From contig NC_134027.1 in NCBI RefSeq assembly GCF_964204645.1, positions 16,950,560-17,014,559 of the forward strand: a stretch of DNA of 64,000 bases. Direction: 5' to 3'. Shown one piece after another: positions 18,244 through 56,405 of this stretch. Both the position numbers and the translations under genes were made by a program. How positions within the stretch are numbered: the first letter of the stretch is position 1; each line of letters starts with the position of its first letter. The notes beneath the pieces are model-generated. The model had not been told where the DNA came from and ran no database searches. It saw only the letters and a program-made list of their open reading frames with translations. Origin of the DNA: Tubulanus polymorphus (lineage: Eukaryota; Animalia; Nemertea).

Positions 18244-18280
18244 TATAAAATCAATTTTAATAAAAAGATTTGTTATTAAA

Positions 18281-21200
18281 ATGGAAGCAAATAAGTACTA
18301 CTGTCCGACATGTAAAATTAATATAGATAAATCTCAAAAAGCAAGACACAATAAAACTAAAACACATTTACAGAATAAATTGAAATTAGAATATAAAGAT
18401 GATATATTAGAAACTAAATTAGCTGAATTAAAGAATGAAAAAGAAATATATAAATGTGATACATGTAATCAATCATTCAGTGATAAAAGATATTATAAAG
18501 AACATTTAAAATCTGAAAGTAATATTAGAAATAAGAATAATGATATTTTAGGGAAAGATTATTTTGATAATGGTAAAGATAAGAACAGAAGACAATTAAA
18601 AGAATAAAAAATAAAATAAACAATAAAAGGCCATACATGGAAGATGTAATAAATTATATTAATTCATTAGATAAAAGAAAAGAAATAGAAATAACCGATT
18701 CATTCAAAAGTGATATTGGACCAGCTGCAATTGAATTTAAATTTCATAAAGGTAAAACATTAGAAGAAAATAAAAAACATTTAGAAAATATGAAAAATAT
18801 TATAAGAATAATTACAGATGTTGAATACCCTAAAATTAGTATATCTTCTAAAGTTAAATTTATAAAATCTGAAGATAAACCAATACATAATATAAATTCC
18901 CATTCACAACATATTATTTCAAAACAACAGATAGATGAAAAATTAGATAAATGTTATAATGTAGTAAAAACTAAAATAGAAGAGAAATATTTTGAAGGAT
19001 CTGGTTTAATATTTGATGAAATAATAATTATGACTTTACATGTTTAAAACGAAAAATATAATAAGTTAAAACCAATTGATGAAAATAATTTATCATATTA
19101 TAAAGATGATAATATAAATGCATCAAGTTATATCAAATTACCATTTAAAACTAATGCTGTAATAAATGTACAAAATTTTGATGATAAATGTTTTCTATGG
19201 GCAATAATTAGTTGCTTACACCCAGTTGAAGATTATAAACAACATAGTTTTAGATTAACACATTATAAACCATTTGAAAATAATTATAAGATAGACAATT
19301 ATCATGTTAGAATTGAAAATATCCCAAAAATAGAAAGAGATAATAATATAAAGATAAATGTGTTTGATTTAGTCAAATTACCAAAAACAAAAGGTAACAA
19401 TATAAAACATTATACATTAGAACCTCTATACTTATCAAAAGATTATGATTCAAATGATGTTATAGATATATTATATTATGAGAAACATTATATGTGGATT
19501 AAAAGAATTGATTTATTTTTCAAATCAGAAAATGATTTTGATAATAAAATATATCTATGTAGAAAATGTATAACTAAATTCAGAACTGAAAGTGCATTAT
19601 TAAATCATAAACAATTATGTGAAAATCATTATTATTGTAAAATAGTTTTGCCAAATGAAAAAGATAAAATATTAGAATTCAAAAAATATAATTACAAGAA
19701 TAAAGTACCATTTGTAATATATGGAGATTTTGAATCATTAAATAAAGAATTAACTCATCAAGAGAGAAAAGAAATATATCGTAAAAGAAAGAAATTAAAT
19801 TCTAATGAAAATGATATAATTACTTATTCAGATCCTCTAATAACAAATGCTATTAAAAAGATACATCAAAGTGCTGCAGCTTTTGGGTTATATATAAAAT
19901 CTGGTTATCTAGAACTAATTGAAAGTGAATATTATCATTACAGAAATGAAAATGTTATCAATCATTTTTGTGACTTATTAATTGAGTGTGAAATCAAATT
20001 TAGTAAACTATTAGATACAAATAAAGAAATAATTATGACAGAAGAAGATAAAGAAGAATTTGAGTTTGCTGATAAATGTTTTTATTGTGAAAAGATATTT
20101 AATTATAAAGATAAAAAAGTAAGAGACCATGATCATTTGAATGGAAAGTTTAGAGGTGCGGCGCACGAGAATTGTAACTTACAAGCTAAGAAAATCAATT
20201 TTGTTCCAGTAATATTTCATAATTTATCAGGATATGAAGCTCATTTATTCATCAAACAGCTATGTCATAAAATAAAAGAAATCAATAATGAAATAGAAAG
20301 ATTAAATTCAAATAGATCAAAAGATAAAATACCAACTTATAAATTAAAAATGTTAGCTTAAACATCTGAGAATTATATATCTTTCCAATTTGGGTGTCTA
20401 AGATTTATAGATTCATATAGATTTTTAAGCAGTTCATTAGAACTAATCAAAATCATTAGTTGATAATGAATTAAAGATATTAAAACAACGCTACCCAAAT
20501 AATGATGATTTTCAATTAATGAGATATAAAGGAGCAATTCCATAGTTTTTATAAAAATCATAATGATTTCAATATAACTGAATTATTAAAAGAACAATTC
20601 TATGATGAATTAAAAAATGAATATGTTAAAGATGAAGTATATAATAGAACTTTGAATATTTGGAATCATTTTAAAATAACAAATCATGGACAATTAGTAG
20701 ATTTATATTTAAAATCAGATTTATTATTATTCACTGATATATTCGAAAGGTTTAGAGATGTAAACCTGAAATATTTCAATATTGATCCTTGCCATTGTTA
20801 TTCATCACCAGGATTAACTTGGGATTGTGGTTTAAAATTTACAGATATAAAAATGGATTTGTTAACAAATATAGATCAATTATTATTATTTGAAAAATCT
20901 ATAAGAGGAGGAGTTTCAGGTGTATTAGGTGATAGATATTTCAATGTAAATGATAACCCTGGTTATAAGTTATTATATATAGATGCAAATAATCTATATG
21001 GATGGGCAATGATGGAACCACAACCTTATGGAGTATTTGAAATAAGTGAAGTTTTACAACATGAAAATAATGATAAATTTGATTTGAAGAAAAAAATCCT
21101 AGATATTGCAGATGATTCAGATACTGGTTACTTCTTTGTTGTAGACTTAGAATACCCTGAAAACATTAAATTTAAATCTAGAAATCTAGCATACTGTCCC

Positions 21201-23339
21201 GAACATAAAATTGTAACACATGAAGAATTATCAAATTATCAAAAAAGAATTAAACCCGAAAATCATATTCATACAGAAAAGTTAATGGTAACTCAGGAAG
21301 ATAAATATAATTATGTAGTACATTATAGAATGTTGAAGTTTTATTTGAATCAAGGAATGGTTCTAAAAAAAGTACATAGATATATACATTTTAATACCAA
21401 AGAGAGAACTAAAGCTAAAACTGATTTTGAGAAAGATTTCTTCAAGTTAATGAATAATGCATTCTATGGTAAGACTTAAATATTAGAAATAGAAATGATA
21501 TTGAGTTAGTTAGTGATGGTAAAAGAATTAGACATTTACAAACATATCATAAGTTCATAGGTAACAGAATGTTTGATGAAAATTTAGCTGCAGTTAAAAT
21601 GAGAACATCTATGAAATTTAATAAACCAATTTATGTTGGAGCTACAGTTTTAGAAATATCAAAGTTATTAATGTATGAATTCTATTATAACGTATTACAA
21701 CCTCATTTTGGAGAAAAGCATATAGAAATCTTATATTTTGATTCTGTAACAGCTGACACCCCAATATTTTCAAAATATAATAATCAAATGTTTATTAGAA
21801 GAATTTCAGAAATAATTCCAAAACAAAATGAACTTTATATTTCGTATGGTGAAAAAGAATTAATACAAATAAATGGGTTAATGGATATTTGGACAAAAAA
21901 TGGATGGGTGAAATTAAAGAATATAATTAGACATAAAACAAATAAAAAGATTTATAGAGTTAGAACTAAATTAGGAATTGTTGATGTTACAGAAGATCAT
22001 AGTTTAATTAAACAAAATGGTGATGAAATAAAACCAACTGATATAAACATTGGAGATGAATTCTTACATAAAAGATTATACCAAAGAATGAATTATATGT
22101 CATTTGATGAAATAATTGATAATATTTATAATATAGAACCTGAAACATTAGAAGAAAAAGAATATTTTATCAAAGGATTTTTTATGGGAGATGGATCGGC
22201 AGGTGTGTATAAATTTGTTATTGGAACTAAATATTGTTGGTATTCATGCAATCAAGATTTGAAATTACTAGAAAGAATTTAAAAAATACTGTGAACAAGT
22301 TTACTCAAATAAAACATTTAGAATAGTGGATCATATGAAATCAACAGCAGTTTATAGAATACTTGTAAATAACCCTTAAGATTTTGCTATAAAATATAAT
22401 GACGAATTCTATATTCATGCAATAGTTAAAAGTAATACTTCAACTAAAGAAATGATAGTGCCGGATTATGTATTGAATGCAGAATATAATCTTAGAAAAT
22501 GGTTCTTCATTGGATTCTACGCAGCAGATGGTTCAAAAGACTATACAAAACAGAAAACTATATCTTTGACACAAAAAGGAAAAGTTGCCATATCAGGACT
22601 AAATATATTATGCAATTCATTAGGATTTAATATGTTAGTTAATATTAGAAAGGATAAACCAAATGTATTTCAATTAACACATGTAGAAAATGAACTAACA
22701 GAAGAAGTTAGAGATTTATTTGAAATATGCAATCCTACAGAATATGTTTATGATTTAACAACTGAAGATGGTACATTTAATTGTGGATTTCCATTAATAA
22801 TAAAAAATACTGACAGTTACATATTAAAGATAAAAACTAATAACTTTACTGATGATTTAAAAACATTAAAACATCATTTCGATTTTAGTAATTATCCTAA
22901 AGATCATGAATTGTTTAACAATGATAATAAAAAGGTGCCTGGTAAATTCAAAGATGAATTAGGTGGTGAAGAAATGATTGAATTCATTGGTATTAGATCT
23001 AAAATGTATTCATATAAAACTAAAACTCATGAATCAAAGAAATTGAAAGGAATTACTAAAAGTGTAGTAGAAAAAAATATTCATTTCAAAGATTACATCA
23101 ATTGTATATTCAATGAAGAAGTTAGAAAACATAAGATGAAATGTTTAAGATTAGAATATCATGAAATGTTTATTGAAGAGATAGAGAAAATAAGTTTGAA
23201 CCCATTTGATGATAAAAGATATATTTTAGATGATGGTATACACACAGTTGCTAATGGTTGCAATTTAGATGAATACTTTAAATTTAAAAGAGAAGAAACA
23301 AAAGAGAATGAAATATTGAAAAGGATTCTAACGTGTTAA
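18281..23339 (+). pseudogene. polB: Protein-primed DNA polymerase B (pPolB) of Polinton A, intein-containing, fragmented
   Basis: N-terminal C2H2 fingers, vOTU-like (KCFLW..HYMWIK), YGDFES exo I, EndoVII DHDH, FHNLSGY, YIDANNLYG, KLMNNAFYGKT, YFD^TDS, GKFKDE, KMY motifs; stops and frameshifts. Confidence 0.95.
21743..22808 (+). mobile_element. Intein with LAGLIDADG homing endonuclease in pPolB A (disrupted)
   Basis: YFD|SVTADTP...TEDH...KGFFMGDG...IGFYAADG...YVYDL...IIKN|TDS; +1 frameshift near 22280 and stop near 22377. Confidence 0.93.
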
Positions 23340-29401: not shown

Positions 29402-29909
29402 TTAAATAAATTCATATTTAAATGGGTGTTGTAATCTAAATAGTAATTTTGATCTTTTAATATTTTTCAACTCATCCATATATTCATTATGTAAATCATG
29501 TGGAATAATATCATTTTCCTCAAGTGCATTTTTCATCGATTTTCTATCTTTATTGTAGAATAAAACTAGAAATGTAATGTTTTCTCTAAAGTCTTTAACA
29601 ATTGAATTATATTTTTGATTTAAAACCCAAGTTGTTATCCCAAAATGTCTCCCAGAGAAAGCTAAATAGCATAACTCACTTTCTCTTACTTTTGAATCAT
29701 GTAAATTTGCACAATCATCTATGATAAATAATGTATTTGATCCTTTATAAATATCAATTGCTATTTTTATACAATTATCTAAATTTTCTTTTACTGTTTT
29801 AGGATCTAATATAATAAATTTATTATTTCTAGTAATATTTCTATCATAAGTTTGATTAAATTCATATGTTGGACAAAATAATACTATATTATCAAAATAG
29901 TTTTTGTAA
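29402..29909 (-). pseudogene. Polinton B ATPase, C-terminal two-thirds (left of the BEL element)
   Basis: Near-identical to 36725-37059, then continues to a natural stop. Confidence 0.88.
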
Positions 29910-30332
29910 GGAATAATTCCTGAAATTCTGCTTTATTGTATTCTGTATACTGTATATGATATATTTCTATGGTTGTTATTTCATGGTTTCTGGTCATGGT
30001 AATTCTATAGCCTGAGAATTTGTATAGTTCAATAGATATATCAGATATTGAGATTTTTGGTCACTTGTTATATGGATTTAGACCTGTAAGGTTGTGTTGC
30101 TGTATTTGAGTAAAGGGTGAAGATTTAAATTGAAGGTTTAGACAGCCAAATATTACGGTAAATTGCTAATATAAAGATATTCTCTTATGTCAATAATTAT
30201 ACAAATTTATTTATGGTAATTTTCTATTTGTTTGTAGTTAATCGTGCATCCGTGTTTGTGACGTCTGAAAATAAATGTCCTAATGATTTTTTGCCACGGA
30301 ACATGAATCTTACGTATCGGTTGATCTTCACA
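29905..30332 (+). repeat. 5' LTR
   Basis: Direct repeat of 36279-36706. Confidence 0.95.
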
Positions 30333-30348
30333 TTTTATTAACGTAATA

Positions 30349-33300
30349 ATGGCTACAGCAGCAACTGGCCAACAAGATGTTAGGCCAAAAGAAACAAGAA
30401 GTAGGTCGCTGACCGAAAAAGGTGTCGAATACCAGAAGGAGAATAAACTGAAAGATAGAAAAAGTCTCCTGAAGAAGCTGAACAACCTGTCTAGTACTCT
30501 TCTGTCAGTTATTGAGCACAGTGACTATGATGTTGTCCAGAATTCATACAAAGACTGGATCAAGACGTACGAGAATTTCTTGCAAGTTTCAGATGAGTAC
30601 TGTCTTCTACTCAGTTCTAAAGAAAAAGAGAATTTGTCGGTCGAAAGTAACGAGATGAATACATACTTCAACCAAGTCAAAATGGCGGCTGAAAATACTT
30701 TGTCGGTACTCGCAAGATCGAAACGGTCTGCTGAATCAAGGAAGTCTGTTAGATCAAAAGCTAGTTCAGTACGCTCTGATTTGAGTAAGGGTAGCTCCAT
30801 AATATCTGCTCGTTTGAAAGAAGAACAGAGAAAAGCTGAGCTTAATGTCTTGCTGAATAGTATGAAGAAAAAACAGACTCTTGAGCTTGAGAAATTGCGG
30901 CTGAAACAACAAGAAGAGTTTTTAGATTTGAATACGCAGCTGGAAGTTAGTGAAGCGAAGAGTAACGTGATTGAAACACTTTTAGATAGGGAATCGAATA
31001 AGTCAATGATTGATGATAAATCGTTCCTTCCTGAACCATTTCCTACACTTCTGAAAAATGAAATAGTTGAAAATGATGGTTCTTACAGACCTTTGAATCC
31101 ACGTGCTACTACGTTCATGCCATCTGATGTCGGAAGCGTTGTTAATGCGGAACCAAGAGGTATAGATTCGATTGTGAAGCATATCAAAAAGCCGTTTGTT
31201 GAAATAAAAAAATTTGACGGAAATCCTCTTGAATACCGGCGTTTCATCCGTCAGTTCAATTCTAGAATTGCTGAGAATACGGACGACGACGATGAACGGC
31301 TAAACTTTCTCGAACAATTCACAATTGGTGAGGCAAATAGAATTGTAACAGGTCTTAGCTATATTGGTTCAACACGAGGATATCAAGCTGTTCTTACAGA
31401 GTTTGAAGAACGATACGGTGACTCGGCGATCATTGCAAATGCTTTGTTAAAGAAAGCTATAAACTGGCCTATGATTAAGTCAGACAACAGTAAAGGCTTG
31501 GACGAATTCTCGATTTTCTTGTTAGAAGTAGAGAATGCTGTGAAAGATATAGATGCATTGAAACTTCTTGAGTACCCTGACAATCTGAGGAAGTTGGTGG
31601 GTAAATTACCATGGTCGCTTCAAGATAGATGGAGAACTATAGTACAGACAACGCGCTCTGCTGGTAATACTATAAATCTGAATACCTTAGTGAGTTTTGT
31701 ACGGAAGGAGTCAAAAAAGGTGAACGACCCGATTTTTGGTAAAGATATGATGGCTGCTGCGTTAGATCAGAAGAAAGACAAAAAGTCTCTGCGAATATCA
31801 CAGGGTAGCCGAAATACTGTTGCTGCACAGACGGGGAGCATTTCTCATACGAATCAACAAAACTCATTTAATCTTGCATTGAAGAAACCATGTATATACT
31901 GCGCTGGCGATCATGTATTAAATGATTGTAAAGACCTGTCTAATGTGGTCTTTGAAGAAAAAATATCTTTTCTTAAAAGAAAAGGCCTCTGTTGGGGTTG
32001 TCTCCGATCTGGACATCAGAAGAGAAATTGTAGATTGAAGATGAACTGTGATATATGTAAACGGTTGCATCCAAGTGTACTGCATGATGATTCTAGGTCA
32101 CTTCCTGAAAACCCAGCAATTATGACACGAAGAGATCAGAATCAGAACACGATATCAGATGTAAAAGATGGAATTCCCTGTGGCGCCATAAATGATGGTG
32201 AAAAGAAGACAGATGGATTCTGTACTATGGCTATACTTCCAGTTAGAGTGAAAGTGAAGGGAAGAATTCCAGAAGTGATAACTTTCGCCTTCCTAGATCC
32301 TGGAAGTAGTATTTCTTTTTGTACTTCGTCGTTGTTGAAGCAGATCGGCGGTATTGGCAAGAAAGTGAGATTGAATCTCGACACTATGGCGAGGTCTACA
32401 ATGCTTGATACTCAGATTGTTCATTGTTTAGAAGTCAGAGGTTTGGAAACTGAAGACGTAGTTTTCATGCCTGCTGTTTATACTACAGAGCAGATGCCAG
32501 TTTCACCACTGCATGTGCCTACAGAAGATGACATCCGTAAATGGTCGCACATGAGTGATGTTAAATTGCCTAAGATAGATGCAGAAATTGGTCTGTTGAT
32601 TGGCAATAATATTGCGGATGCATACACACCGTTCGAGTTACGGACAGGCCCTGCTGGATCACCACATGCTTCCAGAACTAGACTAGGATGGGTCGCCTGG
32701 AATGTTATTAGATCTGGTGATGAAGACGATGATATAGTTACCGACACTGTTGACAAAATCAGCTGTGCTGTGAGTTCTCTTGATCAATTGGTTCAGGAAG
32801 CTATAGATTTTGACTTTCCTGAGCGAATTGCTGAAGATAAAAAACAATGGTCAGTTGAAGATCATAAATTTATGACGATGATGGAGTCCAATGTAAAAAT
32901 AGAGAATGGACAGTACCAATTACCAATGCCATGGCGTGACAAGAATTTGAGGTTTCCCAATAATATTCGGCATGCTGAGAAACGACTGTCAAATCTGAAA
33001 AATAAGCTGTTGAAAAATGACAAGTTTCGACATGACTATAATGTCTTTATGGACAATATATTGGCTAAAGGCTACGCGGAACAGGTTCCTAATGAAGATT
33101 TGCGTTTGGAAAATGGTCGTATATGGTATATACCTCATCACGGGGTATATCACCCCAAAAAACCTGAAAAAGTCCGTGTCGTTTTCGATTGTCCTGCACT
33201 TTATGGTGGAGTGTCTTTGAATTCTCAATTGTTACAAGGGCCAGATTTGACTAACACTTTGGTTGGTGTGTTGATACGTTTCAGACAAGAAAGAACCGCA

Positions 33301-35841
33301 ATAATGGCAGATATAGAATCTATGTTTTATAGAGTAAGGGTTGCACCGGATGATAAAGACTGCTTGAGATTCTTATGGTGGCCGGATGGTGATTTGAACA
33401 AGAAAGCCATACCATTCCGTATGTTAGTTCACTTATTTGGGGCAATCTCATCCCCGAGTTGTTCTAACTGGGCTTTACGCCGGACAGCCACTGACAACGT
33501 TAGCAAGTATGAAGTAGAAGTTACCAATACAGTCTTGAAAAACTTCTATGTTGATGACTGTTTGAAGTCTCGTGTACAAGATGGTCAAAATCCAGAATTT
33601 GTGATGAAACTGATATCTCTGTGTAAAGAAGGGGGCTTTCGACTCACCAAGTTTGTAAGTAATGATCGTTCTGTAATTGAAAGTTTGCCAGAAGAAGAGC
33701 TTGCTAAATCTTGCAAGGAGTTGAAGAGTCTGGATTTTGGTTCGCCAACAGAAAGAGCATTGGGCGTCCACTGGAATATAGAGAACGACACTTATGGCTT
33801 CAGGATAACTTCTAAGCATCAACCAAATACACGCAGAGGGATTTTGTCAACGGTCAGCACAGTCTATGATCCTTTGGGTATTGCTGCCCCATATGTACTG
33901 CCGGTGAAAATTCTGCTACAGGACTTATGTAGAGAGAAGCTTTCATGGGATGAAGAAATTCCTGAAAAATATCTGAAAGTTTGGGAGAAATGGCAGGAAG
34001 GTTTACCTGGCCTTGAAGAGTTGGCTATATCACGATGCTTCAAACCTCAATGGTTTCATGGTTCTTCGAAATCTTGTCAGCTGCATCATTTTGCGGACGC
34101 AAGTGATGTTGGGTACGGCACTGTATCATATTTGCGCCTTGAAGATGAAAATGGTCAAGTACATTGTTGTTTTATATTTGCTAAAAGCAGAGTAGCTCCT
34201 TTGAAGAAAATGACAGTTCCTAGGATGGAATTAGCTGCAGCTGCATTACTGATTAAGATGAATAAGATGATGTTGGAAGAATTGGAGTACAGTGTTTCAA
34301 ATGTATATTTTTGGAGCGACAGCACTGCAGTACTGAAATATATTGCTAATGAAACTGCTCGTTATCACACTTTCGTAGCGAATAGAGTGAATTTAATTAG
34401 AGATGGTTCAAGTATTCAGCAGTGGAAGTTTGTAGATGGTCATCTGAACCCAGCAGATTATGCGTCTAGGGGTTTGTCACTGGGTTGTATAGAACAAAAC
34501 TCAGTAGTATGGTTACACGGCCCGGAGTTCCTTTGGAAGCCAATATCTGAGTGGCCACGTCAACACGGTGTTTTACGGTCCCTGAGTGATGATGATGTTG
34601 AGTTGAAGAAGACTTCTAATGCTGTACTTTCGGTTTCTGATGATGATCCTATAAAACATCTATTTAACTACTACTCAAGCTGGCATAGACTCAAACGTGC
34701 CGTTGCATGGTTTTTAAGGTTGAAAGATTGTTTGCTGTTGAGAGTAAGTGAACGTCTTTCTGGTGAAAACGCTAATGCTGAACGATTGAATACCAATAAG
34801 CTGAGTACTGTTGATCTTCAAAGAGCCGAGCTGGCAATTATTAAATGCGTACAGGAAGATTATTTCAGGAAAGAATTAGTGATTCTCCGTTCAAATGATA
34901 GAAAGTTGATTCCCAGAGGTAGTCAATTGTATCAACTAGATCCTGTTTTAGAAGACGATATAATCCGTGTTGGTGGTCGGCTGAGAAAAGCATATTTTCT
35001 TGAATATGAACAACGACATCCGGTTGTATTGCCTAGATGTTCTCATGTGTCGAAATTGATAATGTTGAGTGTTCATGCATCGGTCGGGCATCTTGGTAAA
35101 AGCTCAATGTTAGCCCGATTGCGCGAGCGTTACTGGATTTTAAGGGCTAATCAACTGGTTAAGGATATAACGAGGAAATGTGTTTTATGTAAAAAGTACC
35201 GTGGTCAAGTTTGTAATCAGAAGATGGCAGATCTTCCTCAAGAGCGATTGTTGCCTGACAATCCGCCATTTACTAATACGGGAACAGATTACTTTGGCCC
35301 GTTTGAGGTAAAACGGGGTCGTTGTATTGAGAAGCGTTATGGTGTTATCTTCACCTGCCTGGTAACTAGGGCTGTTCATTTGGAGGTCTCGCCTACTCTG
35401 GACACATCTGGTTGTATTAACGCTTATCGCAGATTTATCGCACGACGTGGAAATGTACGTCTAATTCGATCTGATAATGGAACCAATTTTGTTGGAACCA
35501 ATCGAGAGCTACAGAGGAATATTGATTGTTGGAATAAGGACCAAATCCATGATTTCTTATTGCAGAACAATGTCAAGTGGATTTTTAATCCTCCAGGTGC
35601 GAGTCACTTTGGAGGTGTATGGGAACGCCTCATTCGTTCCGTCCGTAAAATCTTGTTTTCATTGATGAAAGAACAAGGTTCAAATCTAAATGATGATAAT
35701 TTATCCACATTGTTCTGTGAGGTCGAGTCGATTTTGAATAGTCGACCTATATCTACGTTATCAAATGATCCAAATGATCTACAACCTTTAACACCTATTA
35801 CTGTTACACAAAGGATCTACTTTTCCTCCCGGACTATTTGA
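30349..35841 (+). CDS. BEL/Pao Gag-PR-RT-RH-IN polyprotein (C-terminus frameshifted; native tail continues to ~36169)
   Basis: Triple Cys-His gag knuckles, FLDPGS protease, ADIESMF and FYVDD RT, FADAS RNase H, TDYFGP/SDNGTNF/WERL integrase. Confidence 0.96.
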
Positions 35842-36278
35842 CAAATCCGATTTATATACTCGACGTCGTTGGAGGCAAGTTCAGCATATTGCGAATGTTT
35901 TCTGGAAGCGGTGGACATCTGAGTATTTGCATCTCCTGCAGATTCGCAGTAAATGGAATACTGCGAAACGAAACGTATGTGTTGGAGATATTGTCTTCAT
36001 CGTCGATTGATCCATCCGTAACTCGTGGACTCTATCGCGTATTTCAGAAGTCCATCGTGATCGAAAAGGTTTTGTTCGTTCGGCTTCAGTAAGAACGGCA
36101 AAGGGTACTATTTTTCAGCGTCCTATTGATAAGCTGTGCGTTCTCGTCGAAAATGAAATTAAACTTTAGATTCTCTTTGTTACTTTAGATTCATCGTGCT
36201 TAACAGTCAAGAATAGGTTTTTGTTTTTGGACATTATCGTTATTATGTTAATTGAGTTTCTCAATTAGGGGGCGGGTA

Positions 36279-36706
36279 TGTAAGGAATAATTCCTGAAAT
36301 TCTGCTTTATTGTATTCTGTATACTGTATTTGATATATTTCTATGGTTGTTATTTCATGGTTTCTGGTCATGGTAATTCTATAGCCTGAGAATTTGTATA
36401 GTTCAATAGATATATCAGATATTGAGATTTTTGGTCACTTGTTATATGGATTTAGACCTGTAAGGTTGTGTTGCTGTATTTGAGTAAAGGGTGAAGATTT
36501 AAATTGAAGGTTTAGACAGCCAAATATTACGGTAAATTGCTAATATAAAGATATTCTCTTATGTCAATAATTATACAAATTTATTTATGGTAATTTTCTA
36601 TTTGTTTGTAGTTAATCGTGCATCCGTGTTTGTGACGTCTGAAAATAAATGTCCTAATGATTTTTTGCCACGGAACATGAATCTTACGTATCGGTTGATC
36701 TTCACA
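36279..36706 (+). repeat. 3' LTR
   Basis: Direct repeat of 29905-30332. Confidence 0.95.
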
Positions 36707-37160
36707 AGTCATAAGAAAGTAATCTAATGTTTTCTCTAAAGTCTTTAACAATTGAATTATATTTTTGATTTAAAACCCAAGTTGTTATCCCAAAATGTCT
36801 CCCAGAGAAAGCTAAATAGCATAACTCACTTTCTCTAACTTTTGAATCATGTAAATTTGCACAATCATCTATGATAAATAATGTATTTGATCCTTTATAA
36901 ATATCAATTGCTATTTTTATACAATTATCTAAATTTTCTTTTACTGTTTTAGGATCTAATATAATAAATTTATTATTTCTAGTAATATTTCTATCATAAG
37001 TTTGATTAAATTCATATGTTGGACAAAATAATACTATATTATCAAAATAGTTTTTGTAAACAGTTTCTAATAAATTTAATATAAAATAAGTTTTTCCACA
37101 ATTTGTTACACCAGAAATTAACATATTATGAGGCTCAAATATAAATAATTCCTTATTCAT
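36702..37160 (-). pseudogene. Polinton B packaging ATPase, N-terminal part (interrupted)
   Basis: GVTNCGKT, FIIDD, SGRH, NQ motifs of A32-like ATPases. Confidence 0.92.
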
Positions 37161-38288
37161 TTATATATTTTTAATTTTACTTGATAATATCCATTCATTA
37201 AATTTATCTGGCCATCCAACCCATTTTACTAAAGAATATTTTTTTCTTTTAATACTTTTTGTTTTTAATACTTTTTCAATTTTATATTCTTGTTTTAGAT
37301 TTTCAGTAGTTAAACTTAATTCTTCTTCGTAAAAGTAGCCATCAACTTCTTCACCATCTAAATCTTCTAATTTATAGACATATGGTTTTGTTGTTATTAC
37401 CTTTTTTATTTTATATATTTCTCTAGTAAAATTTCGATCGTATCCTTTGTCAAATATCTTTTTATACTTAGAAATTCTAACATTTTGACCAACTTTAAAT
37501 TTAGGTTCACCAAAATCATCTACAAGAAATGCTCCATATAAATTATTCCAAACAATTTCAGCATTTTCAGATTTTCTAGCATCAATAGGTTTCATTCCAA
37601 TAGAAGAATGATAAGAATTATTATATCCTTCTATCAATTTTAGCAAAACATCAATCCATTTAAAAGTATTATTTGCTGTAAAATATTTCCACATTCTTGT
37701 TCTTAATGTTCTATTAAATCGTTCAACAACTGCTGCTTTTTTATCCGATTTTGTTGAAAAATATTTAATATTATGAAAATCTAAAAGTCCATGAACTAAT
37801 GAATTATCAAATTCTTTTCCATCATCAAATTGAATTTTTTCTGGTTTTAGTTTACCACCTGAAAGAAATTTTCTTAAAACATGTGATGTTTGTGCAGCAT
37901 CTTTTCTATAAAGTGGGAAGCTCCATACATAACGACTAAAAATATCAATTATATTCAATATCCACCAATAATCATTATTATCTTTTTTAAGATTTTTCAT
38001 ATCAATTAAATCTCCTTGCCACTGTTGATCTACATAACTTACCATAGTTTTACGAGTTTTATATTTTCTAACAATTTTTTTATGTGTTGTATATGTTGGT
38101 TGTTCTAACATAAATTCATTTATATCTTTATATTTAACTAAATTTTGTGGGATTATCTTATCTAATTTATCTTGTTTTACTTTACGCCATATATTTTTAG
38201 TAGAAGAATAAGCAACCGAACTCTCAGGGTTGTAATATAAATTTCTTAAATATTGTTCTTTAGTATTAGGAGTTTTTTTACCACCCAT
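37161..38288 (-). CDS. int: Polinton B retroviral-like integrase with C-terminal chromodomain
   Basis: DDE: WQGDLIDM, IQFDDGKEF, VERFNRTL; YKIEKVL...LVKWVGWPDKFNEWI chromodomain; intact 375 aa. Confidence 0.95.
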   Translation of the reverse strand: MGGKKTPNTKEQYLRNLYYNPESSVAYSSTKNIWRKVKQDKLDKIIPQNLVKYKDINEFMLEQPTYTTHKKIVRKYKTRKTMVSYVDQQWQGDLIDMKNLKKDNNDYWWILNIIDIFSRYVWSFPLYRKDAAQTSHVLRKFLSGGKLKPEKIQFDDGKEFDNSLVHGLLDFHNIKYFSTKSDKKAAVVERFNRTLRTRMWKYFTANNTFKWIDVLLKLIEGYNNSYHSSIGMKPIDARKSENAEIVWNNLYGAFLVDDFGEPKFKVGQNVRISKYKKIFDKGYDRNFTREIYKIKKVITTKPYVYKLEDLDGEEVDGYFYEEELSLTTENLKQEYKIEKVLKTKSIKRKKYSLVKWVGWPDKFNEWILSSKIKNI

Positions 38289-38318: not shown

Positions 38319-39556
38319 CTAATATTGAATACTATCTAATTGAGAATTTACAATATTTAATTGTGCGTCAGATATAATATAAATGTGCATTTTAAAATTT
38401 TTGATTCCTTTATTCTTTTTCATGAATAATTGTATTCCATCTTTAGTGTTCTGTATTTTTTTTCCAGAACCATGTAATGAATTATCTTCAGTTGTTCTAA
38501 AATCTAACCATAATGCATATTTATTGCCGGTATAATAATCAATTTGATTAATATTACAATTTTCAAATGATTTTACTTTTTCATTCATAAAATGTTTTCT
38601 AATTTCTGGCCATTGATCATTCATTCTCATTCCTTGACAAAATATTTTATTTGCTATTCCTTCGATAGTTATTTCTACTTTTGTTATTTCAGGATTATAA
38701 TAATTATCAACATTTATTGCGCCATTAGTATACGTTCCAATGGTAAAAAATATTAATATACCTTTAATAGATCTTCTAGGAAAGTTAATATTCTCATTAA
38801 TAATTTCATCATTTGCATTAATAGTGCATCATCAATATAATCATATAATAATGAAAATCCTTGATTGTATTGAGTTTGAATTGTGCTAGCAATATTTTCA
38901 TTAGTTATTGTGTTATATTCTAAACATATATTCGATAATTTATAACTCATATCTTTAACAACGCTAGATAATACAATTTCATTTACAGGAGCAAATGTTA
39001 TCTCAAATATAATATCTTCTTGAATTGCGTATTTATATAAAGGTGCATTATTATTTATCAATTCAAAATCTAATGGAATTTTATATTTGCTTCCATAAAT
39101 CTTTTTAATCAAATTATCTACGTCATTATTTACTACTGCGTTATTGGCTTCAGATCTTAATTTATTTTGGTTTTCTGATTGAATTCCTTGAAATATCATA
39201 TTATTTCTATTTTCTTTAGTTAACCATAAATCTTTATAATGCATAAATAAATTATAATCATCTAATGAGAAAACTGTTTCTGGACCAATCTTTATTGTTA
39301 ACTTTTTAATCAAATATCTTCCAACATTATCAACGACATAATTATTATTATTGCCAGATACTTTTATATCGGCTGATAAATAAATACTGTTTGGAACATA
39401 AAAAGTATTTTGTGTTAATCTAGGAATTCTAACATATAAAGTTTCATCGGGATTAATATTTGAAGGGTTATGAGTAATTATCTGATGTGATCTTTCTGCT
39501 TTAATAGCATTAGATATTCTATGATTCTTCGAAGGACTTATATAACTCCCACTCAT
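38319..39556 (-). pseudogene. Major capsid protein (double jelly-roll), frameshifted
   Basis: THNPS.I.P...L.VR.P, KIPLDFE, L.NI.LEY, LWLDFRT..DNSLHGSG motifs typical of invertebrate Polinton MCPs; ~410 codons; adjacent to INT/ATPase. Confidence 0.75.
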
Positions 39557-44687: not shown

Positions 44688-46004
44688 ATGGATGAGAAGA
44701 TAGCATGCGAAATTTGTGGTGAACTTCTAAGAAAAAGTAATATGGCTCGACATATGAAAAAACATGATGAAAATTATAAACCCCCTAAAATAAACTGTCC
44801 AAATTGTAATAAAACATTCTCTAGAAATTATTTCAAAAAACATTTAGAGAAGTGTAAAAATAATAACTTAATAGTTAATGTTGACAGTAACGAAAGTAAT
44901 AATAATTCTGTTGAAGTTGAACCTGAAATTATTTGGAAAAGACCTTTCTTATTCTATGATAAGGATAATATAAAAGATCATTTCTGTGAGCCTTGTCGAA
45001 TAAAATATAACCCTGAAAATATAGAAGATTGGGAGAATCATCAATTTCGTAAAGTACATACAGATAAAATTTCTAATAAATTTGAAACTGAATTCAATGC
45101 AAGAAAAAATAATTTATTAGAAAAAATAAAATATGAGAAAACGTTACCAGATAATGAAGAAACAGTTGAAAAGTTAAAAAAACAATATAATGAATTAACA
45201 AGAAAAACATATTATTGTAAATATTGTAAATTGATTATTACAACAAGTAATTCAAATCTACATAATAGAACAATAAAACATAAAGAAAACGTAAGAAAAT
45301 ACCAAGAGCTTAATGAAGATCTATTACCAGTAAATTATAAACAAAAATGCCCACAATGTTATTATACGACCTTAAGACAAGAAGGTACTGTGTTATTTTG
45401 TGTTGATTGTGGATGGCAAAGGAATTTATGGGGTGAAGAAAAAACTAGAGATTTTCTTATAGAACCAAAATTAAATTATCTAGATGAAATTTTTAAAATA
45501 TTTTCTATAGAAGATCATACACCAGAATATATGCAATGGCTTGAAAAAATGAAAATAATAGAAAATAAAAATGGTGAAATAACTAAAAAAGATATTATAA
45601 AAACAATTATTCCACCAACATTTAACACAAAACAAAAGAAAATGTATTTATATTTATTATTTAACGATTATTATGAAAAACCTAAATTAACAGAAGAAGA
45701 TATGGAAAATATAAAAAAAATATTTAAACAAATATTAATGTATCATTTGGAAAATAGAATAACAGATTCAATAAATTATGAATTCTTTTTAAATAAGATT
45801 GTAAATTATTTAAACCTAGATATTATAATTCCATTTGATGAATTAACAAACAAAAAGAAACAAAGAGAGCGAGATGAAATGTGGAACAAGATAGAAATTT
45901 ATTTAAATGAGAAAAATGGAATGGAAGAAGAACCTGAACAATTAAATGAAAATGAAGAAGCTAATAGTGATTTCGAGTATGATGATATTGATTTTATGTT
46001 TTAA
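44688..46004 (+). CDS. Multi-zinc-finger protein with VLTF3-like (poxvirus A2/NCLDV late transcription factor 3) C-terminal half
   Basis: N-terminal C2H2-like fingers, Zn ribbon CPQC..CVDCG, then F..I......R...INY.F.L.KI...L.....F..L...K....D..W.KI...L. Confidence 0.7.
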   Translation: MDEKIACEICGELLRKSNMARHMKKHDENYKPPKINCPNCNKTFSRNYFKKHLEKCKNNNLIVNVDSNESNNNSVEVEPEIIWKRPFLFYDKDNIKDHFCEPCRIKYNPENIEDWENHQFRKVHTDKISNKFETEFNARKNNLLEKIKYEKTLPDNEETVEKLKKQYNELTRKTYYCKYCKLIITTSNSNLHNRTIKHKENVRKYQELNEDLLPVNYKQKCPQCYYTTLRQEGTVLFCVDCGWQRNLWGEEKTRDFLIEPKLNYLDEIFKIFSIEDHTPEYMQWLEKMKIIENKNGEITKKDIIKTIIPPTFNTKQKKMYLYLLFNDYYEKPKLTEEDMENIKKIFKQILMYHLENRITDSINYEFFLNKIVNYLNLDIIIPFDELTNKKKQRERDEMWNKIEIYLNEKNGMEEEPEQLNENEEANSDFEYDDIDFMF

Positions 46005-49000
46005 TGGCCATAAGGTAATGTTTTTATACCATCATCTAAAATATGCCTTTTATCATCAAATGGATTTAAACTAGTTTTTTCAACTTCATTAATGTACATC
46101 TCATGATCTTCTGATCTTAAACAATTCATCTTGTGTTTCATTACAATTGAGTTATATAAACACTTTATATAATCTTGAAATTCTATATGTTTATCAACCA
46201 CATGTTTTGTTATTCCTTTTAACTTTTTAGCTTCATGATCTTTTGTTCTGTAACTATACATTTTACTTCTTATCCCAACAAATTCAATCATTTCATCACC
46301 TCCTAATTCATCTTTAAATTTACCAGGAATCTTTTTATTATCATTGCTAAATAGTTCATGATCTTTAGGATAATTGCCAAAATCAAAATGATGTTTTAAT
46401 GTTTTTAAGTCTTTTGTTATATCATTTGTCTTGATTTTTAGTATGTAGGCGTCAGTATTGACTGCTATTAATGGAAATCCACAGTTAAATGTACCAACCT
46501 CAGTTGATAAATCATAAACATAATCTGTTGGGTTATATATTTCAAATAAATCTTTAACTTCTTCAGTTAACTCATTTTCTGTGTGGCTTATATTAAAGCA
46601 ATTTGGTTTAGATTTAATCAATCCAATATTCATATTAAAACCTAATGAATTGCATAATATATTTAATCCTGATATAGCAACTTTTCCTTTTTGAGCTAAA
46701 GATATTGTTTTGCGGTTTTTGAAACTTTTAGTACCATCGGCTGCGTAGAATCCAATGAAGAACCATTTTCTTAAATTATTTTTTGCATTTAATACATAAT
46801 CTGGTACTATCTTTTCTTTAGTTGAAGTATTACTTTTCATTATTGCATGAATATAGAATTCATTATTGTATTTTATAGCAAAATCTTTAGGATTATTTAC
46901 AAGTATTCTATAAACTGCTGATGATTTCATAACATCCATGATTTTAAAAGTTTTATTTGAATTAACTTCTTCGCAAAATTTCTTTATTCTTTCTAATAAT
47001 TTCAAATCTTGATTGCATAAATACCAACAATATTTAGTTCCACTAACATAATTATACACACCTGCTGAACCATCACCCATGAAAAATCCTTTGATAAAAT
47101 ATTCTTTTTCTTCCAATGTTTCGGGTTCTATATTATAAATATTATCAATTATTTCATCAAATGACATATGATTCATTCTTGGGTAAAATCTGTTGTGTAA
47201 TAATTCATCTCCAATTTTTATATCAGTTGGTTTTATTTTATTACCATTTTGTTTAATCAAACTATGGTCTTCAGTAATATCAACAAATCCTAATTTAGTT
47301 CTAACTCTATAGATTTTCTTATTCGTTTTATGTCTAATTATATTCTTTAATTTTTTCCATCCATTTCTCGTCCAAACATCCATTAATCCATTTATTTGTA
47401 TTAATTCTTTTTCACCATACGAAATATAAGATTTATTTTGATTAGGAATTATTTCTGAAATTCTTCTAATTAATATTTGGTTATTGTATTTTAATAATAT
47501 TGGGGTGTCTGCTGTAACAGAATCAAAATATAGAATTTCTATATGCTTTTCTCCAAAAAGTGGCTGCAAAACATTATAATAAAAATCATACATTAGTAAT
47601 TTTGATATTTCTAAAACTGTTGAACCAATGAAAATAGGTTTATTAAATTTCATTGACGTTCTTTTTAATTTTACCGCGGTCAAATAATCCTCAAACCTTT
47701 TATTTCCTAAATGTCTAGGACTTGATTGTAGGTGTCTCAATCGTTCAGAATTATTTACTAATTCAATATCATTTCTATTTCTAATATTTTCACATGTTTT
47801 ACCATAAAAACTATTATTCATCAATTTAAAGAAATCTTTTTCAAAATCTGTTTTTGATATGGTTCTCTGTTGAGTATTGAAATCTATATATTTTTCTAAC
47901 CACTTCGATTGATTAAATTCAATATATCTATGTACTTTCTTTATTTTCATTCCTTGTTTTAGATAAAATTTTAACATTCTATAATGAACAATATAATTGT
48001 ATTTATTATTTTGAGTAAGTATTAATTTTTCTGTAAAACATGATCTTTCGGTTTTATTTTCTTCTGGTATTCACTTAAATAACTATCATCTACAGTTAAA
48101 TGTTCTGGGCAATAAGGTAAGTTTCTTGTTTTAAACTTTATATTTTCAGGATATTCTAAATCAACTACAAAGAAATAACCAATTGGTGCTTCATCTTTTA
48201 AACTAATAATTGCGCTTTCCCAATCAGTTTTATCACCATTTTCAACTTCTGTTAATATAAAATTTTTATATGGTTGAGGTTGCATCATTGCCCAACCATA
48301 TAAATTATTGGCGTCAATATATAATAATTTATATTCATCATTTGCTTTAAAATACCTATCTCCCATAACACCACTAATTCCACCTCTAATTGATTTTTCA
48401 AATAATAAAACCATATCTGGTTCTTTTAATAAATCTAATTCTACATTTGTATATTTTAAACCACATTGCCAGGTTAAACCAGGACTAGAGTAGCAATAAC
48501 AAGGATCAACATTAAAATGATTCAAATTAACTTCTCTAAATTTTTCAAATATGTCAGCCAATATCATAACATCTGATTTTAAATATAAATCAACTAATTC
48601 GCCATGATTTTTCATCTTAAAATGGTTCCAAATATTTAATGTTCTATTAAACACTTCGTCTTTCACATACTCCTCTTTTAATTTATCATAAAATTGATCT
48701 TTTAATAATTCTGTTACATTAAAATCATCATGTGTTTTATAAAATGAATAAGGCATTGCGCCTTTATATCTCAATAATTTAAAATCTTGGTCATTTGGAT
48801 AATAATATCGAGTTATAACAAAATCATTATCAACTAAACTTTTTGATTAATTATCTAATGAACTTGCTAGAAATCTATAAGAATCTAAAAATCTAATGCA
48901 ACCAAATTGAAATGAAATATAATTTTCAGATGTTTTAGCTAATAGTTTAAAATCATATTTTCTTACATTTGCTTCATTCATAGCATTATATTCTTCTATT

Positions 49001-50713
49001 TCTTGATTAATTGCACCCAATTTTCTGATAATTGTTTTATAAATAGATGGGTATCATATCCTGATAAATTATGAAATAATATTGGTACGAAATTTACTTT
49101 TTTAGCTTGTAAATTGCAATCTTCATGAGCAGCTCCACGATATTTTGAATTCAAATGATCATGATCTCTAACTTTTTTATCAAATGAATAAAAATGTTTT
49201 TCACAATAACAACAATGAGTTGCATAATTAAAATCAATTTCATCTTCTTTTATCATAACTATTCTTTTATTTTTGTTTAATAATTTTGCAAAATCACTTT
49301 CTAATTTAATCATTTTATCACAGAAATCATTAACTACATTTTCACCTCTAAAAGAAATATATTGACTTTCATATAATTCGGGATAATTTGATTTTATATA
49401 AATTCCATAAGCAGCAGCTCTTTGATGAACTTTTTCAATTGTATTTATAATTGGTGGGTCTTGTATTGTGTCTTCATTTAATTCATTTCCTTTATCCATT
49501 GATTTTAATAATTGCTTTTTGTTATATATTTCTTTTCTATCTTGATCAGTTAATTCTTTATTCAACGATTCAAAATCCCCATAAATTACAAATGGAACAA
49601 TATTTTTAAATTTATGATTAGTAAATTTCAATTTATAATCTTTTTCTGTTGGCATTATTAATTTACAAAAATCTTTATTATATAATGTTTCATATTTCCG
49701 ATAATCTGTTATTCTACAAACATTTTCCTGTGTTGGATGTAAACAACTAATAATTGACCATAGAAAACATTTATTATCTTCATTTTGAACATTTATTACT
49801 GCTTTTGTTATAAATGGTAATTTAATATAAGATGATGCTTTAATATCCTTTTCTGTTGTAAAGTTTGAATCATTTTTAAACATTTTATTACTTTTTGATG
49901 TTTTATTTCTTTTTGTATTATAAACATTTAAATCTAAATATATAATTTCATTCAATGTTAAGCCAGAACCCTCAAAATATCTTTCTTCAATATGACATTT
50001 AAATTCATTTAATATTTTTTCTAACTTCTCTTTTATTTGTGTTTTTGAAATTATTTCTTCAGAGTGTGTTTGAATATTATAATTCATTTTTTCTTCTGAC
50101 TTTATAAAACTTACTTTCCCAGAGATACTAATTTTTGGATATTCAACATCTGTTATCAAATCTAGTATTTTTCCATTATTTCATTAAATTTACTATAATC
50201 TTCTATTGTTGTACCTTTAAAGAATCTAAATATAATAGCTGCAGGACCAATTTTACTATGTAATGTTTCTAAGATTTCAATTGTATCTTTTATTTCTAGT
50301 GAATCAATATAATTTCTAACATTTTCCATGTAAGGTTTATTTGAAATGGATTTAGTTTTTGAAGTTGATTCTTTTACTTTTTGAGGTTTATTATCAAAAT
50401 AATCTTCTCCTAAAACATTATTACTCAAATTTTGATGGTGTTTTTGTGATTCGAGATGTCTATTATAATTCCTTTTTACTATAAATTCATTACAAACTTC
50501 ACATTTTATTTCATCCACATTCATATTTTCTAATCGTTCTTTTCTTTCATTGGAATTTTCTGGAGTTTCAAAATCTATAACATTTTTTATATGATTTGAA
50601 GATTTTTCATGTTTAGATTTATTAGATTTATCGATGTATTTTTTACAATATTGACAATAATATTGATTTTTATTGACATTATTGTTTTCTAGTTGGTGTT
50701 CATTCTCCCCCAT
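46001..50713 (-). pseudogene. polB: pPolB of Polinton B, intein-containing, fragmented by frameshifts and an in-frame deletion
   Basis: ORFs 50162-50713, 48996-50159, 48022-48774, 46001-47977 carry all PolB motifs; YFD^TDA. Confidence 0.95.
46457..47521 (-). mobile_element. Intact 355-aa intein with LAGLIDADG homing endonuclease
   Basis: Block A SVTADTP, B DITEDHSL, C KGFFMGDG, D KIVP, E IGFYAADG, F YVYDLST, G IAVN, followed by +1 Thr. Confidence 0.95.
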
Positions 50714-50798: not shown

Positions 50799-51239
50799 TA
50801 TATAATCATCTTTGTTTATATCTAATTCACCATGATTCTTAAAACGATAATAAGTAGGTATATTAGCTTCTTTTCTTAATTTTTCAAAGTATTTATCAAA
50901 ATCATCATAATAAAAATCAAAATGATATCTAAAATTATTTATCAGATAACTTAAATCTATTTTTCTAAAATATAATAATATATACATTGTTTAGGATTAT
51001 ATTCTGCATAAGCTAATAATTTATCAAATAACAACTTATAGAATATATAATATTGTTTAGTTTAGGATTAAAATATTTGATATATTTCTTTGGGTTATTT
51101 AACAATGGTATCATACTCACCATTTTATAAACATTAATTAGATGTAATTTTGATTTATAATGAGTATTTTCATCAACAGGTTCAATTTTCTTATTACAAT
51201 ATTGGCACGTTTTATTTCTTTCGATTTCTTCTAATTTCA

Positions 51240-51741
51240 TCAATTCAAAATCTAATGGAATTGTATATTTGCTTCCATAAATCTTTTTGATCAAATTATC
51301 TACGTCATTAGTTACTACTGCATTATTGGCTTCAGATCTTAATTTATTTTTTTGGTTTTCTGATTGGATGCCTTGAAATGTCATATTATTTCTATTTTCT
51401 TTAGTTAACCATAAATTTTAATAATGCATAAATAAATTATAATCATCTAATGAAAAAAACTTTTCTTGACCAATCTTTAAAGTTAATTTTTTAATCCAAT
51501 ATCTTCCAACATTATCAACTACATAATTATTATTATTACCAGTTACATTTATATCAGCTGATAAATAATTACTATTTGGAACATAAAAATTATTTTGTGT
51601 TAATCTAGTGATTCTAACATATAAGGTTTCATTAGGATTAATATTAGAAGGGTTATGAGTAGTTATATGATGAGATCTTTCTGCTTTAATAGCATTAGAT
51701 ATTCTAGGATTCTTAGAAGTATTTATATAACTCCCACTCAT
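51240..51741 (-). pseudogene. Polinton A major capsid protein, 3'-deleted
   Basis: Highly similar to 39060-39556; fused to an unrelated Zn-finger fragment at ~51240. Confidence 0.8.
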
Positions 51742-51761
51742 TTATTCAACATAAAAATTAA

Positions 51762-53185
51762 TTATTTATTTTCTATCATATTCACTAACCCAAAAATAAT
51801 ATCACTTACAACTGTAATTAAAAATAAGATTATATGTGCAGCAGCAAAGTTAAGAATATTCCCAGCAGATTTTAAAACAAATCCGACAATCGATGCAATA
51901 ACTGCAGCAGATTTTTTGGATAGTTCCCATAAATATTTTGCTGATTTTTTTAAACCATCCTTAACTTTATCTTTTATAGAATTATTATCATTTGGGGGTT
52001 TATCTGGTTTATTCGGACTTGGTGTAGATTTCAATGAATTTGATATTGCTAAACCTATTGTTGTAAATACCATAGTTACAGCTGTTAGAATTGAAAGAAT
52101 TGTTATACCTTCAAACTTGAATAATAATTTTATTTTGTCTTTCAATGATATTTCAGAATTTGGTTTTATTATTAACTCTTTAACAACAACTTTTAATCTA
52201 TTAATACAATAATCATATGATTTAATAATAATTTCATTTTTTCTTTCTGAAATTCTATGTTATATTCTAAATCATCAATTTCTTTTTCTAAATATGCATT
52301 TCTTTTTTTAAATTCAATTTCTTTAATAATTTTAAATTCTCTATCTAATTTTAATTGTTCTAATTCTTTTCTGGTGTCAAATAATTTATTTTCAAAAGGT
52401 TTAATTTTATTATATCTAATATTTTTTTCGCGCGCAATTTTATCGGGTTCATTTCGTAAAGTTATTATTTATCTAATTGTTTTTTTCAGAAAACATACTT
52501 AAAGCTTCTATTTCTTGATCTGTTGCATCAAGTAATCCATTCGGTAAAAGTTTTTCAGTTGAACTTCGTTTGATTTAAGTTTACTTTTTTTTGGAAATTA
52601 TATTCTGTTCAGAAGTTGTTTCTGTTTCTAAATTATCATTGATTATTTAAAATTATTCATTAATTCTTTCTTTAAATACTCTTTTATTTTGATTTATTTC
52701 TTCTTGTGAAACATTTTCTATTTCATTACTATTATTACTTATTCTTTTAATTCAAGATGGTTCTAAATTACTCAAAGTTGATTCCGCTAATATTTTGTTT
52801 TGATTTTTATAAGTGATATTAATATAATAATCATCTTTCAAATGATAATAATATTCACCATCTAAAGATTTTAATTCTGTTACTAAAAGTCTGGTGTCTC
52901 TATCATTTATACTATATCCCGATCTTTCAAATATAGGTTTCAAATTATAAATATATTCATTATATTCTAAAATAAATCTGGATTTTCATTTTCAGGATTT
53001 ATTTTCGATTTAGTTCTTCTATTAAATTCGTCTGTTGATGTGGCTTTAGAACCACTATCTGCTAAATTAGAATTATACGCTGATCCATCATCATTATCAA
53101 TATTAGTTTCATTAAAATCAGGTTGTGGTTCATCACTTATACCGGGGGCGTCTCCAAAAGTATCCATTGGAATATCTTCTTCCAT
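51762..53185 (-). pseudogene. Polinton A homolog of the 474-aa coiled-coil membrane protein
   Basis: Pieces 52967-53185, 52752-52943 and 51762-52145 are collinear with 39581-41005. Confidence 0.85.
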
Positions 53186-53201
53186 TTATATAATAAAAAA
53201 A

Positions 53202-54720: not shown

Positions 54721-54780
54721 TTATTTAGCAAAAAAATATGCATTTATATAGGAGGAATATATTTTTGTTTTTCCAAATAA

Positions 54781-55101: not shown

Positions 55102-55117
55102 TTATATATTTGAAAAA

Positions 55118-55871: not shown

Positions 55872-55888
55872 TTATTTTACATATTTTC

Positions 55889-56230
55889 TTATTCGAAATC
55901 TATTTCATGGTGCCCTTTTTCATTCTTACCTTTGTATATGAAATGGAAATCACCTGAACATAATTCTTCTAAATCTTCACTTGATAATCTATGAAATCTA
56001 TCTGGTAAATATGTTCTGAATTTATATTCATTTCCTTTTAATCCTTCATATTCTAAGTGGATAACTAATTTATCTCCATAGTTATTAGTAACTGTATCAA
56101 TATTTGTAATTAGATATTTCTTATGAATTGTTAATTCTGTTAACTTTTTGAATTTATAATCTACAGATTTTACGTTTGAAGTATCTTTGACTCTATCTAA
56201 GAATTCACTGTGTATTTGTTTACTCTCCAT
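55889..56230 (-). CDS. TIR-encoded small protein (putative OB-fold ssDNA-binding)
   Basis: Intact 113 aa; homolog of 26892-27218. Confidence 0.8.
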   Translation of the reverse strand: MESKQIHSEFLDRVKDTSNVKSVDYKFKKLTELTIHKKYLITNIDTVTNNYGDKLVIHLEYEGLKGNEYKFRTYLPDRFHRLSSEDLEELCSGDFHFIYKGKNEKGHHEIDFE

Positions 56231-56405
56231 TTTAATAACAATTTTTTTAATTAAAATTGATTTTAGAAGTCATTCCTATTTATATATATGAATATTTTAA
56301 GAGTAATAGGGAATAAGTTGTTTCGAGTTAAAGGTTGAAGGGTCGGAAAATAAATTCGAGTGTGCGAGAATTTATTTTTCGACCCTTCGACCTTTAGCTT
56401 GAAAC
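55889..56405 (-). repeat. Polinton A right TIR (outer tip truncated)
   Basis: Reverse complement of ~17727-18243; hairpin 56302-56405. Confidence 0.88.

Follow-up and report, generated by a model that had tools for sequence, protein, structure and literature searches.

The 64,000-nt stretch of DNA analysed here (the window, in whose positions all coordinates are given) carries a LAGLIDADG-bearing intein at the pol-c site of a Polinton protein-primed DNA polymerase (pPolB). We consider it probable, with good confidence, that this is a self-splicing intein of viral origin, which likely homes to empty motif-C sites in DNA that is likely animal. A more specific reading, in which an active pol-c intein came from a giant virus, occupies both pPolB classes and is still homing between Polinton families in animal germlines, we favor by a little over even chances. 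If that is true, protein splicing and LAGLIDADG-driven gene conversion would run naturally in animal cells whenever these Polintons replicate.

The intein of Polinton copy B (46457..47521, minus strand; P0001) was delimited by its open frame, profiles and a structural model. It consists of 355 aa without a stop, its translation runs from SVTADTP to FPLIAVN, and it sits between YFD and TDA of pPolB motif C within the ORF 46001-48070. The Hint N-terminal part spans approximately residues 1-112, followed by the LAGLIDADG endonuclease (approximately 135-310) and then by the Hint C-terminal part. The class-1 residues Ser1, Thr83 and His86 of block B, Asn355, and Thr+1 are present. The TEDH motif (residues 83-86; 47264..47275, minus strand) is near-invariant in the intein alignment; we take it to be block B, and VYDL at residues 335-338 to be block-F-like. 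Alignment and motif scanning placed the first LAGLIDADG motif, GFFMGDGS, at residues 145-152 (Asp150; 47066..47089, minus strand) and the second, GFYAADG, at residues 257-263 (Asp262; 46733..46753, minus strand). The C-terminal splice junction, Val354-Asn355/Thr+1, was read from the sequence at 46454..46462 (minus strand). In profile searches, NCBIfam TIGR01445 (intein_Nterm; 31.3 bits against a cut-off of 24.5) and Pfam LAGLIDADG_3 (PF14528; E 1.9e-8) scored above their cut-offs, whereas Pfam Intein_splicing (E 2.9e-6) remained under its own. Collectively, these results confirm 46457-47521 as an intein with class-1 anatomy and a two-motif LAGLIDADG domain at the pol-c site. The initial annotation had described an open 1065-bp insert splitting motif C, with the intein blocks and two LAGLIDADG motifs, and each of these elements was recovered. 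Its placement at pol-c also agrees with the motif-C position of Mimivirus and archaeal PolB inteins given in the accessible part of PMC549080. In contrast, its term "intact" suits the intein frame but not the surrounding pPolB, which is broken in several pieces.

The AlphaFold model of the copy B intein, based on a 46-row alignment, reached a pLDDT of 92 and a pTM of 0.92. Foldseek matched the model to the TliVMA intein (7qsu, E 1.6e-16) and PI-PkoII (2cw7, E 1.8e-16); the best solved-structure matches were all homing-endonuclease inteins together with I-DmoI, and the best named viral matches were giant-virus DNA polymerases. Following the class-1 route of established intein biochemistry, splicing would begin with an acyl shift at Ser1 aided by Thr83 and His86, continue with the attack of Thr+1 and finish with the cyclisation of Asn355. 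The reaction would rejoin YFD to TDA and restore motif C with both catalytic aspartates.

The host pPolB of copy B (46001..50713, minus strand), traced by tblastn with the intein-free relative P0264, is divided into at least four reading-frame pieces. At least three frame changes (near 50,170, 49,030, and 48,045) and a stop near 48,850 were found, and the breaks fall at several places upstream of the intein. Pfam DNA_pol_B_2 matches this gene at 48022-48846 (E 9e-11). The host pPolB of copy A (18287..23258, plus strand; tblastn) is also broken. A packaging ATPase (Pox_A32) and an rve integrase with a chromodomain occupy 36702..38288 (minus strand; Pfam E 3e-12 and 7e-9), adjoined by a probable major capsid protein in two ORFs at 38319..39556 (minus strand), which has a weak Pfam Capsid_N match (E 0.009). 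No Pfam match to a Polinton protease was obtained in the window. The terminal region at 55881..56405 (minus strand) is 96% alike to 17728-18251 in inverted orientation. Based on Pfam, the hallmark pPolB, rve integrase, and packaging ATPase are all present in the window, as are Polinton terminal regions, and the copies form nested fragments. Both intein alleles sit in decayed Polintons.

Several further elements were observed in the window. It contains at least four pPolB remnants, and the capsid-side genes at 39-44 kb recur, 72-95% alike, in a second decayed Polinton fragment at 51013-55358. The Polinton ends (14550-14720, 17686-17840, 56278-56410, and 61760-61860) contain an internal inverted repeat of approximately 130 bp, so that a terminal hairpin is possible. 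Short non-coding MITE-like elements with TTAA-flanked inverted ends lie at 9820-10070 and 17290-17605.

A penultimate His is usual in class-1 inteins and is not obligatory. It does not appear to define the pol-c group: among 256 other distinct complete inteins, this position is His in 125, Lys in 99, Ser in 10, Phe in 9, Tyr in 6, Arg in 4, and Leu, Met, and Gln in 1 each. The non-His penultimate residue noted in the initial annotation is indeed Val in copy B and Lys in copy A. Since Val occurs in none of the 256 other inteins, the copy B intein may splice poorly or not at all, and with both this atypical residue and a broken polymerase, copy B may be inactive. It is best described as a stranded relic, to judge from its reading frames, with an open intein in a polymerase that is not open. 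We rejected the openness of the intein as proof of selection after insertion: with about 4 breaks per approximately 1,330 other pPolB codons, our own arithmetic gives an unbroken stretch of 355 codons about a 1-in-3 chance.

The second, disrupted allele reported by the initial annotation is present at the identical YFD/ site of copy A (21743..22808, plus strand) and, as read from the sequence, ends in Ile-Lys-Asn/Thr. It shares 87% nucleotide identity with the copy B intein and gives a TIGR01445 match above cut-off on 21569-22282; its frame is broken once near 22,275, and a single stop lies near 22,375. In this single pair of copies, synonymous differences counted over same-residue codons amount to 47/281 in the intein versus 180/492 in the exteins, taken as five segments (Fisher p=2.7e-9). 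The edge of divergence is sharp, with the codon bins that touch both intein borders already at the extein rate. Base composition was rejected as a cause of the low synonymous divergence of the intein, since GC3 is alike across the intein and exteins (0.13-0.18). The lower divergence suggests, from this one pair, that the intein passed between Polinton lineages A and B after their polymerases had diverged. General recombination between Polinton families may also have contributed to the pattern, although the sharp borders speak against it. Moreover, dN/dS values of 0.25-0.26 were obtained for each of the two Hint parts and for the endonuclease, and the endonuclease is under purifying selection. 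Both the lower intein divergence and this selection are sequence signs of homing.

The same intein recurs in many other pPolBs. Judged from sequence, 24 of the 33 similar-length matches are pPolB pieces with this intein, at 41-75% identity, and full-length open proteins that combine pPolB and intein exist in public assemblies (P0090, P0091, P0095, P0098, and P0099 from a longer-length search, and P0066 from cluster members). TxDH and both LAGLIDADG motifs are kept in 27 of 29 complete pPolB inteins. The polymerase of P0095 is very distant (approximately 4.6 changes per site in the extein tree), yet its intein is related; from a strong PF03175 match, we equate this polymerase with the "Alpha" pPolB class in the available part of PMC8502044. 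The intein appears to be present in both major pPolB classes. Motif-C inserts were surveyed in the best 120 pPolB matches, of which 5 carry the intein, 113 are empty (79 scored by pattern and 34 by eye) and 2 stop short of the site. An extein tree of 49 selected rows has carriers at approximately nine places, and none of the three closest relatives of the copy B polymerase (80% identity) contains the intein. Separately, approximately 33 of the best 120 pPolBs have Cys for Thr in motif C (D-C-D; for example, P0267, P0272, and P0304); these belong to the same large family as the intein alleles and possibly represent escape from the endonuclease.

Filled and empty alleles can be closely similar. 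The filled P0091 (1537 aa) and the empty P0220 and P0222 (1191 aa) are 98.7-98.9% alike over 1042 aa, and P0230, which forms a filled/empty pair with P0233, is identical to P0233 after the site. Among the 15 listed of 136 members of the P0091 cluster, at least 7 have a complete 346-348-aa intein and at least 4 are empty, with approximately 98-99% identity between filled and empty alleles upstream of the site. In raw DNA run X5, which comes from another study but bears the species label of the datasets that match this DNA best, 55 reads pass directly from one flank to the other and lack a net 1065 bases. The depth in this run, as means of bins at 80% likeness, is approximately 219 for the intein versus approximately 495-519 for the flanks, a ratio of approximately 0.43. 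Arithmetically, an approximately 219-fold depth from 1,934 Mb read equals about 11 copies if the genome is 100 Mb and about 110 if it is 1 Gb. Collectively, filled and empty alleles coexist, also in raw reads under the same species label.

Differences between such alleles are concentrated at the borders. Between P0091 and P0220, the final 7 residues upstream of the site contain 4 differences and the preceding 1,034 contain 9, and 13 of 150 residues differ downstream. Differences between P0091-type alleles and their empty sisters cluster at positions -7 to -2 and from +3 on, and the clustering is repeated in three further filled/empty pairs. This arrangement fits co-conversion from another family or the survival of cut-resistant empty alleles. 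Collectively, the intein belongs to a family with members in many Polinton lineages and hosts, and it appears to move by homing from one Polinton family to another. This distribution, which the initial annotation did not cover, does not agree with a single jump into this germline. In the proposed cycle, an intein-free allele would be cut and then converted from an intein-bearing copy; as Polintons are multicopy, empty targets would always be present and would keep the endonuclease under selection.

Regarding origin, the exteins of the best 150 library representatives best matched giant-virus-like PolB in 134 cases, T4-like PolB in 3, topoisomerase II in 2 and pPolB in 1, with no match in 10; the closest non-Polinton relatives of the intein are mostly in giant-virus-like PolBs. 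All 26 complete viral-contig alleles that were extracted sit at the D/S...N/TD site, and the 12 host proteins scanned for viral-contig alleles are all RNA-primed-type PolBs. No pPolB extein was found in 117 viral and metagenome loci, and the search of annotated phages gave 1 weak match. In 5 of 5 trees, built from full-length inteins with near-copies thinned in all but the first, the pPolB inteins form one group (SH-aLRT 90, 80, 77 [bootstrap 90], 100, and 100). The tree rooted with 8 archaeal inteins, 7 of them at pol-c, unites 13 pPolB inteins in a single clade (SH-aLRT 100), which lies several nodes deep among the viral pol-c PolB inteins. This nesting supports a transfer from a viral PolB into Polintons. 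The sister of the clade (support 97) comprises 8 alleles that share a C-terminal G[FST]PL signature, which is found in 26 of 26 pPolB inteins versus 15 of 230 others; its members include the giant-virus MAG loci L001 and L009 and T4-like phage PolBs. The identity of the sister group varies with the taxa sampled, and the AU test did not reject the grouping by this signature (p=0.23). A long-branch, large-phage-like trio (P0144, P0153, and P0156) is sister to the pPolB clade in 3 of 5 trees but not in the archaeal-rooted tree, and was set aside as probable long-branch attraction because the grouping was lost with the archaeal outgroups.

For the jump from giant-virus PolB to Polinton put forward in the initial annotation, the rooted tree upholds the direction of transfer but not a giant-virus donor specifically, because the sister group is mixed with T4-like alleles. 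A giant virus is nevertheless the likely donor. We infer a single entry into Polintons from the PolB of a large DNA virus; co-infection as the route is a guess. A motif hinted at an asfarvirus-like identity of P0398, P0477, and P0499, but this lead was dropped; genes flanking the related locus L092 had no Pfam match.

Other inteins of this group showed additional distributions. Type II topoisomerases (P0142, P0157, P0412, P0520, and P0173) also contain pol-c-group inteins, at a D/TDG site resembling motif C, in an apparent non-allelic spread. The pol-c inteins of the T4-like phage PolBs P0100, P0101, P0386, and P0505 branch within giant-virus-like alleles at two separate points of the tree, a pattern suggestive of intein exchange between phages and giant viruses. 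Giant-virus-like PolBs with two related inteins, one in motif B and one in motif C, were also observed (P0375, P0383, P0388, P0390, P0396, P0400, and P0425).

The evidence on the host comes from nested elements and relatives. A BEL/Pao LTR retrotransposon (29905..36706, plus strand; Peptidase_A17 E 8e-51) lies in the Polinton ATPase region, and its LTRs (29905-30332 and 36279-36706) are 99.8% alike. Animal names are attached to only 2 of the 120 best extein relatives, both Mytilus edulis (45-46% identity). One intein carrier lies on a 2.5-kb contig that was binned with a lucinid clam symbiont and is likely clam host DNA. An exon-like stretch of 35 codons with AG/GT ends was seen at 60561-60665 (minus strand); it may be alpha-arrestin C-terminal-like, and this candidate host exon found no support in Pfam, Atlas or PDB. 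Two copies of a 342-bp ATPase block, 99.1% alike, flank the BEL/Pao element (29568-29909 and 36718-37059); the block is far longer than a target-site duplication, and its repetition may be an assembly artefact or an LTR-linked duplication. According to the available part of PMC3118150, the BEL/Pao class occurs only in metazoan genomes, and the nested copy is the chief evidence pointing to an animal host. The DNA is likely an animal nuclear genome.

Three alternatives were weighed against this interpretation. If the intein spliced but no longer homed, its distribution would reflect a single ancestral gain, vertical inheritance and repeated loss, with an endonuclease that is only structural. The single clade of pPolB inteins and the subclades that in some cases mirror extein groups are compatible with such a history, but it would need many exact losses, given the 113 empty pPolBs among the best 120. 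It also leaves unexplained the halved synonymous divergence within the intein and the related intein in the remote polymerase of P0095, and the catalytic motifs are kept at a dN/dS of 0.25. We consider loss of homing quite improbable, and continued homing is the preferred reading.

The donor could instead have been a bacteriophage PolB of the T4-like or large-phage type, with a real and mobile intein. The T4-like PolBs P0100, P0101, and P0386 belong to the sister group and have its signature, P0100 ranks first among the non-Polinton matches of the longer-length search, and the trio that was sister in 3 trees resembles PolBs of large-phage contigs. However, phage alleles are few (3 T4-like among the best 150) and branch within giant-virus-like alleles, the addition of archaeal outgroups separated the trio from the Polinton clade, and phage and Polinton DNA generally have no common replicating cell. 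We regard a phage donor as unlikely, though less so than the loss of homing; it touches only the origin and would leave the remainder of the preferred explanation unchanged. Finally, the host might be a protist, another eukaryote or a mixed assembly, in which case the Polinton intein stands regardless. The lack of database support for the candidate exon at 60561-60665 favors this view, whereas the young BEL/Pao element inside the Polinton, of a class reported only from metazoans, the named extein relatives from Mytilus edulis and the recurrence of the DNA under one species label in two studies oppose it. A non-animal host therefore receives little credence from us, and an animal host is retained.

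Inteins were regarded as absent from animals by the initial annotation, which is in line with the literature: in their available parts, a 2021 review describes them as absent from metazoan genomes (PMC8529194), and a 2018 survey of eukaryotes counts 0 in Metazoa and reports inteins in four giant-virus families, including Iridoviridae (PMC5784728). Direct homing between distant PolBs was thought implausible by Ogata et al. (PMC549080, available part). No report of a Hint-domain intein in a Polinton pPolB was found in the openly accessible literature that was searched; the accessible parts of PMC12220804, PMC3671162, and PMC5718144 contain nothing on it, and the word "intein" is absent from that of PMC8502044. 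What is likely new here is a known intein allele type in a new class of host polymerase, in likely animal nuclear DNA, with apparent signs of homing.

With an animal as host, this intein would be a counter-example to the absence of metazoan inteins, located in an endogenous virus-like element and not in a host gene. The allele has also crossed between RNA-primed and protein-primed family-B polymerases, a mark of DNA contact of Polintons with large DNA viruses. Furthermore, the coexistence of filled and empty alleles with an intein younger than its polymerase would allow a direct test of homing within an animal genome. It also implies that Polintons with this intein have to express pPolB and splice it, which bears on whether Polintons still replicate.

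Reference 10 of Krupovic et al. is taken by us to be Jeong et al. In a single sentence of its available text, the closest statement found, Krupovic et al. (PMC11071308) read nuclease inserts in pPolBs as possible "intein invasions". The HNH/VSR domains described in the available main text of Jeong et al. (10.1101/2023.08.22.554363) are likewise nuclease inserts in invertebrate Polinton pPolBs, and that main text has 0 occurrences of "intein" or "LAGLIDADG". In contrast to those nuclease domains, copy B has a full Hint domain that interrupts a catalytic motif and must be removed. Endogenisation likewise brought viral-like DNA polymerases with inteins onto nuclear scaffolds of algae and a labyrinthulomycete (Klebsormidium, Tetrabaena, and Hondaea; PMC10710043), and the available text, 2 supplements included, never mentions Polintons or animals.

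Structurally, TliVMA, PhoVMA, PI-PkoII, PI-PfuI, and PI-SceI share with copy B the Hint domain and the two-motif monomeric LAGLIDADG fold (TM up to 0.66), and I-DmoI superposes on the model with an rmsd of about 3 Å over about 188 columns. However, these solved homing-endonuclease inteins and I-DmoI are only 10-18% identical to copy B and belong to other host proteins and sites. The closest known systems are the pol-c (position III) PolB inteins of Mimivirus, other Nucleocytoviricota and archaea, which occupy the same motif-C site in the available part of PMC549080. Ser1, the terminal Asn, Thr+1, the block-B Thr and His, and the LAGLIDADG domain are common to both, the lengths are 351 and 355 aa, and copy B is 33-44% identical to giant-virus MAG alleles. 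The site reads YGD/TDS in those PolBs versus YFD/TDA in the copy B pPolB. Unlike the known pol-c inteins, whose hosts are RNA-primed PolBs, the copy B intein has a penultimate Val and resides in the protein-primed polymerase of an integrating Polinton, on a eukaryotic chromosome, in many copies and with empty alleles alongside.
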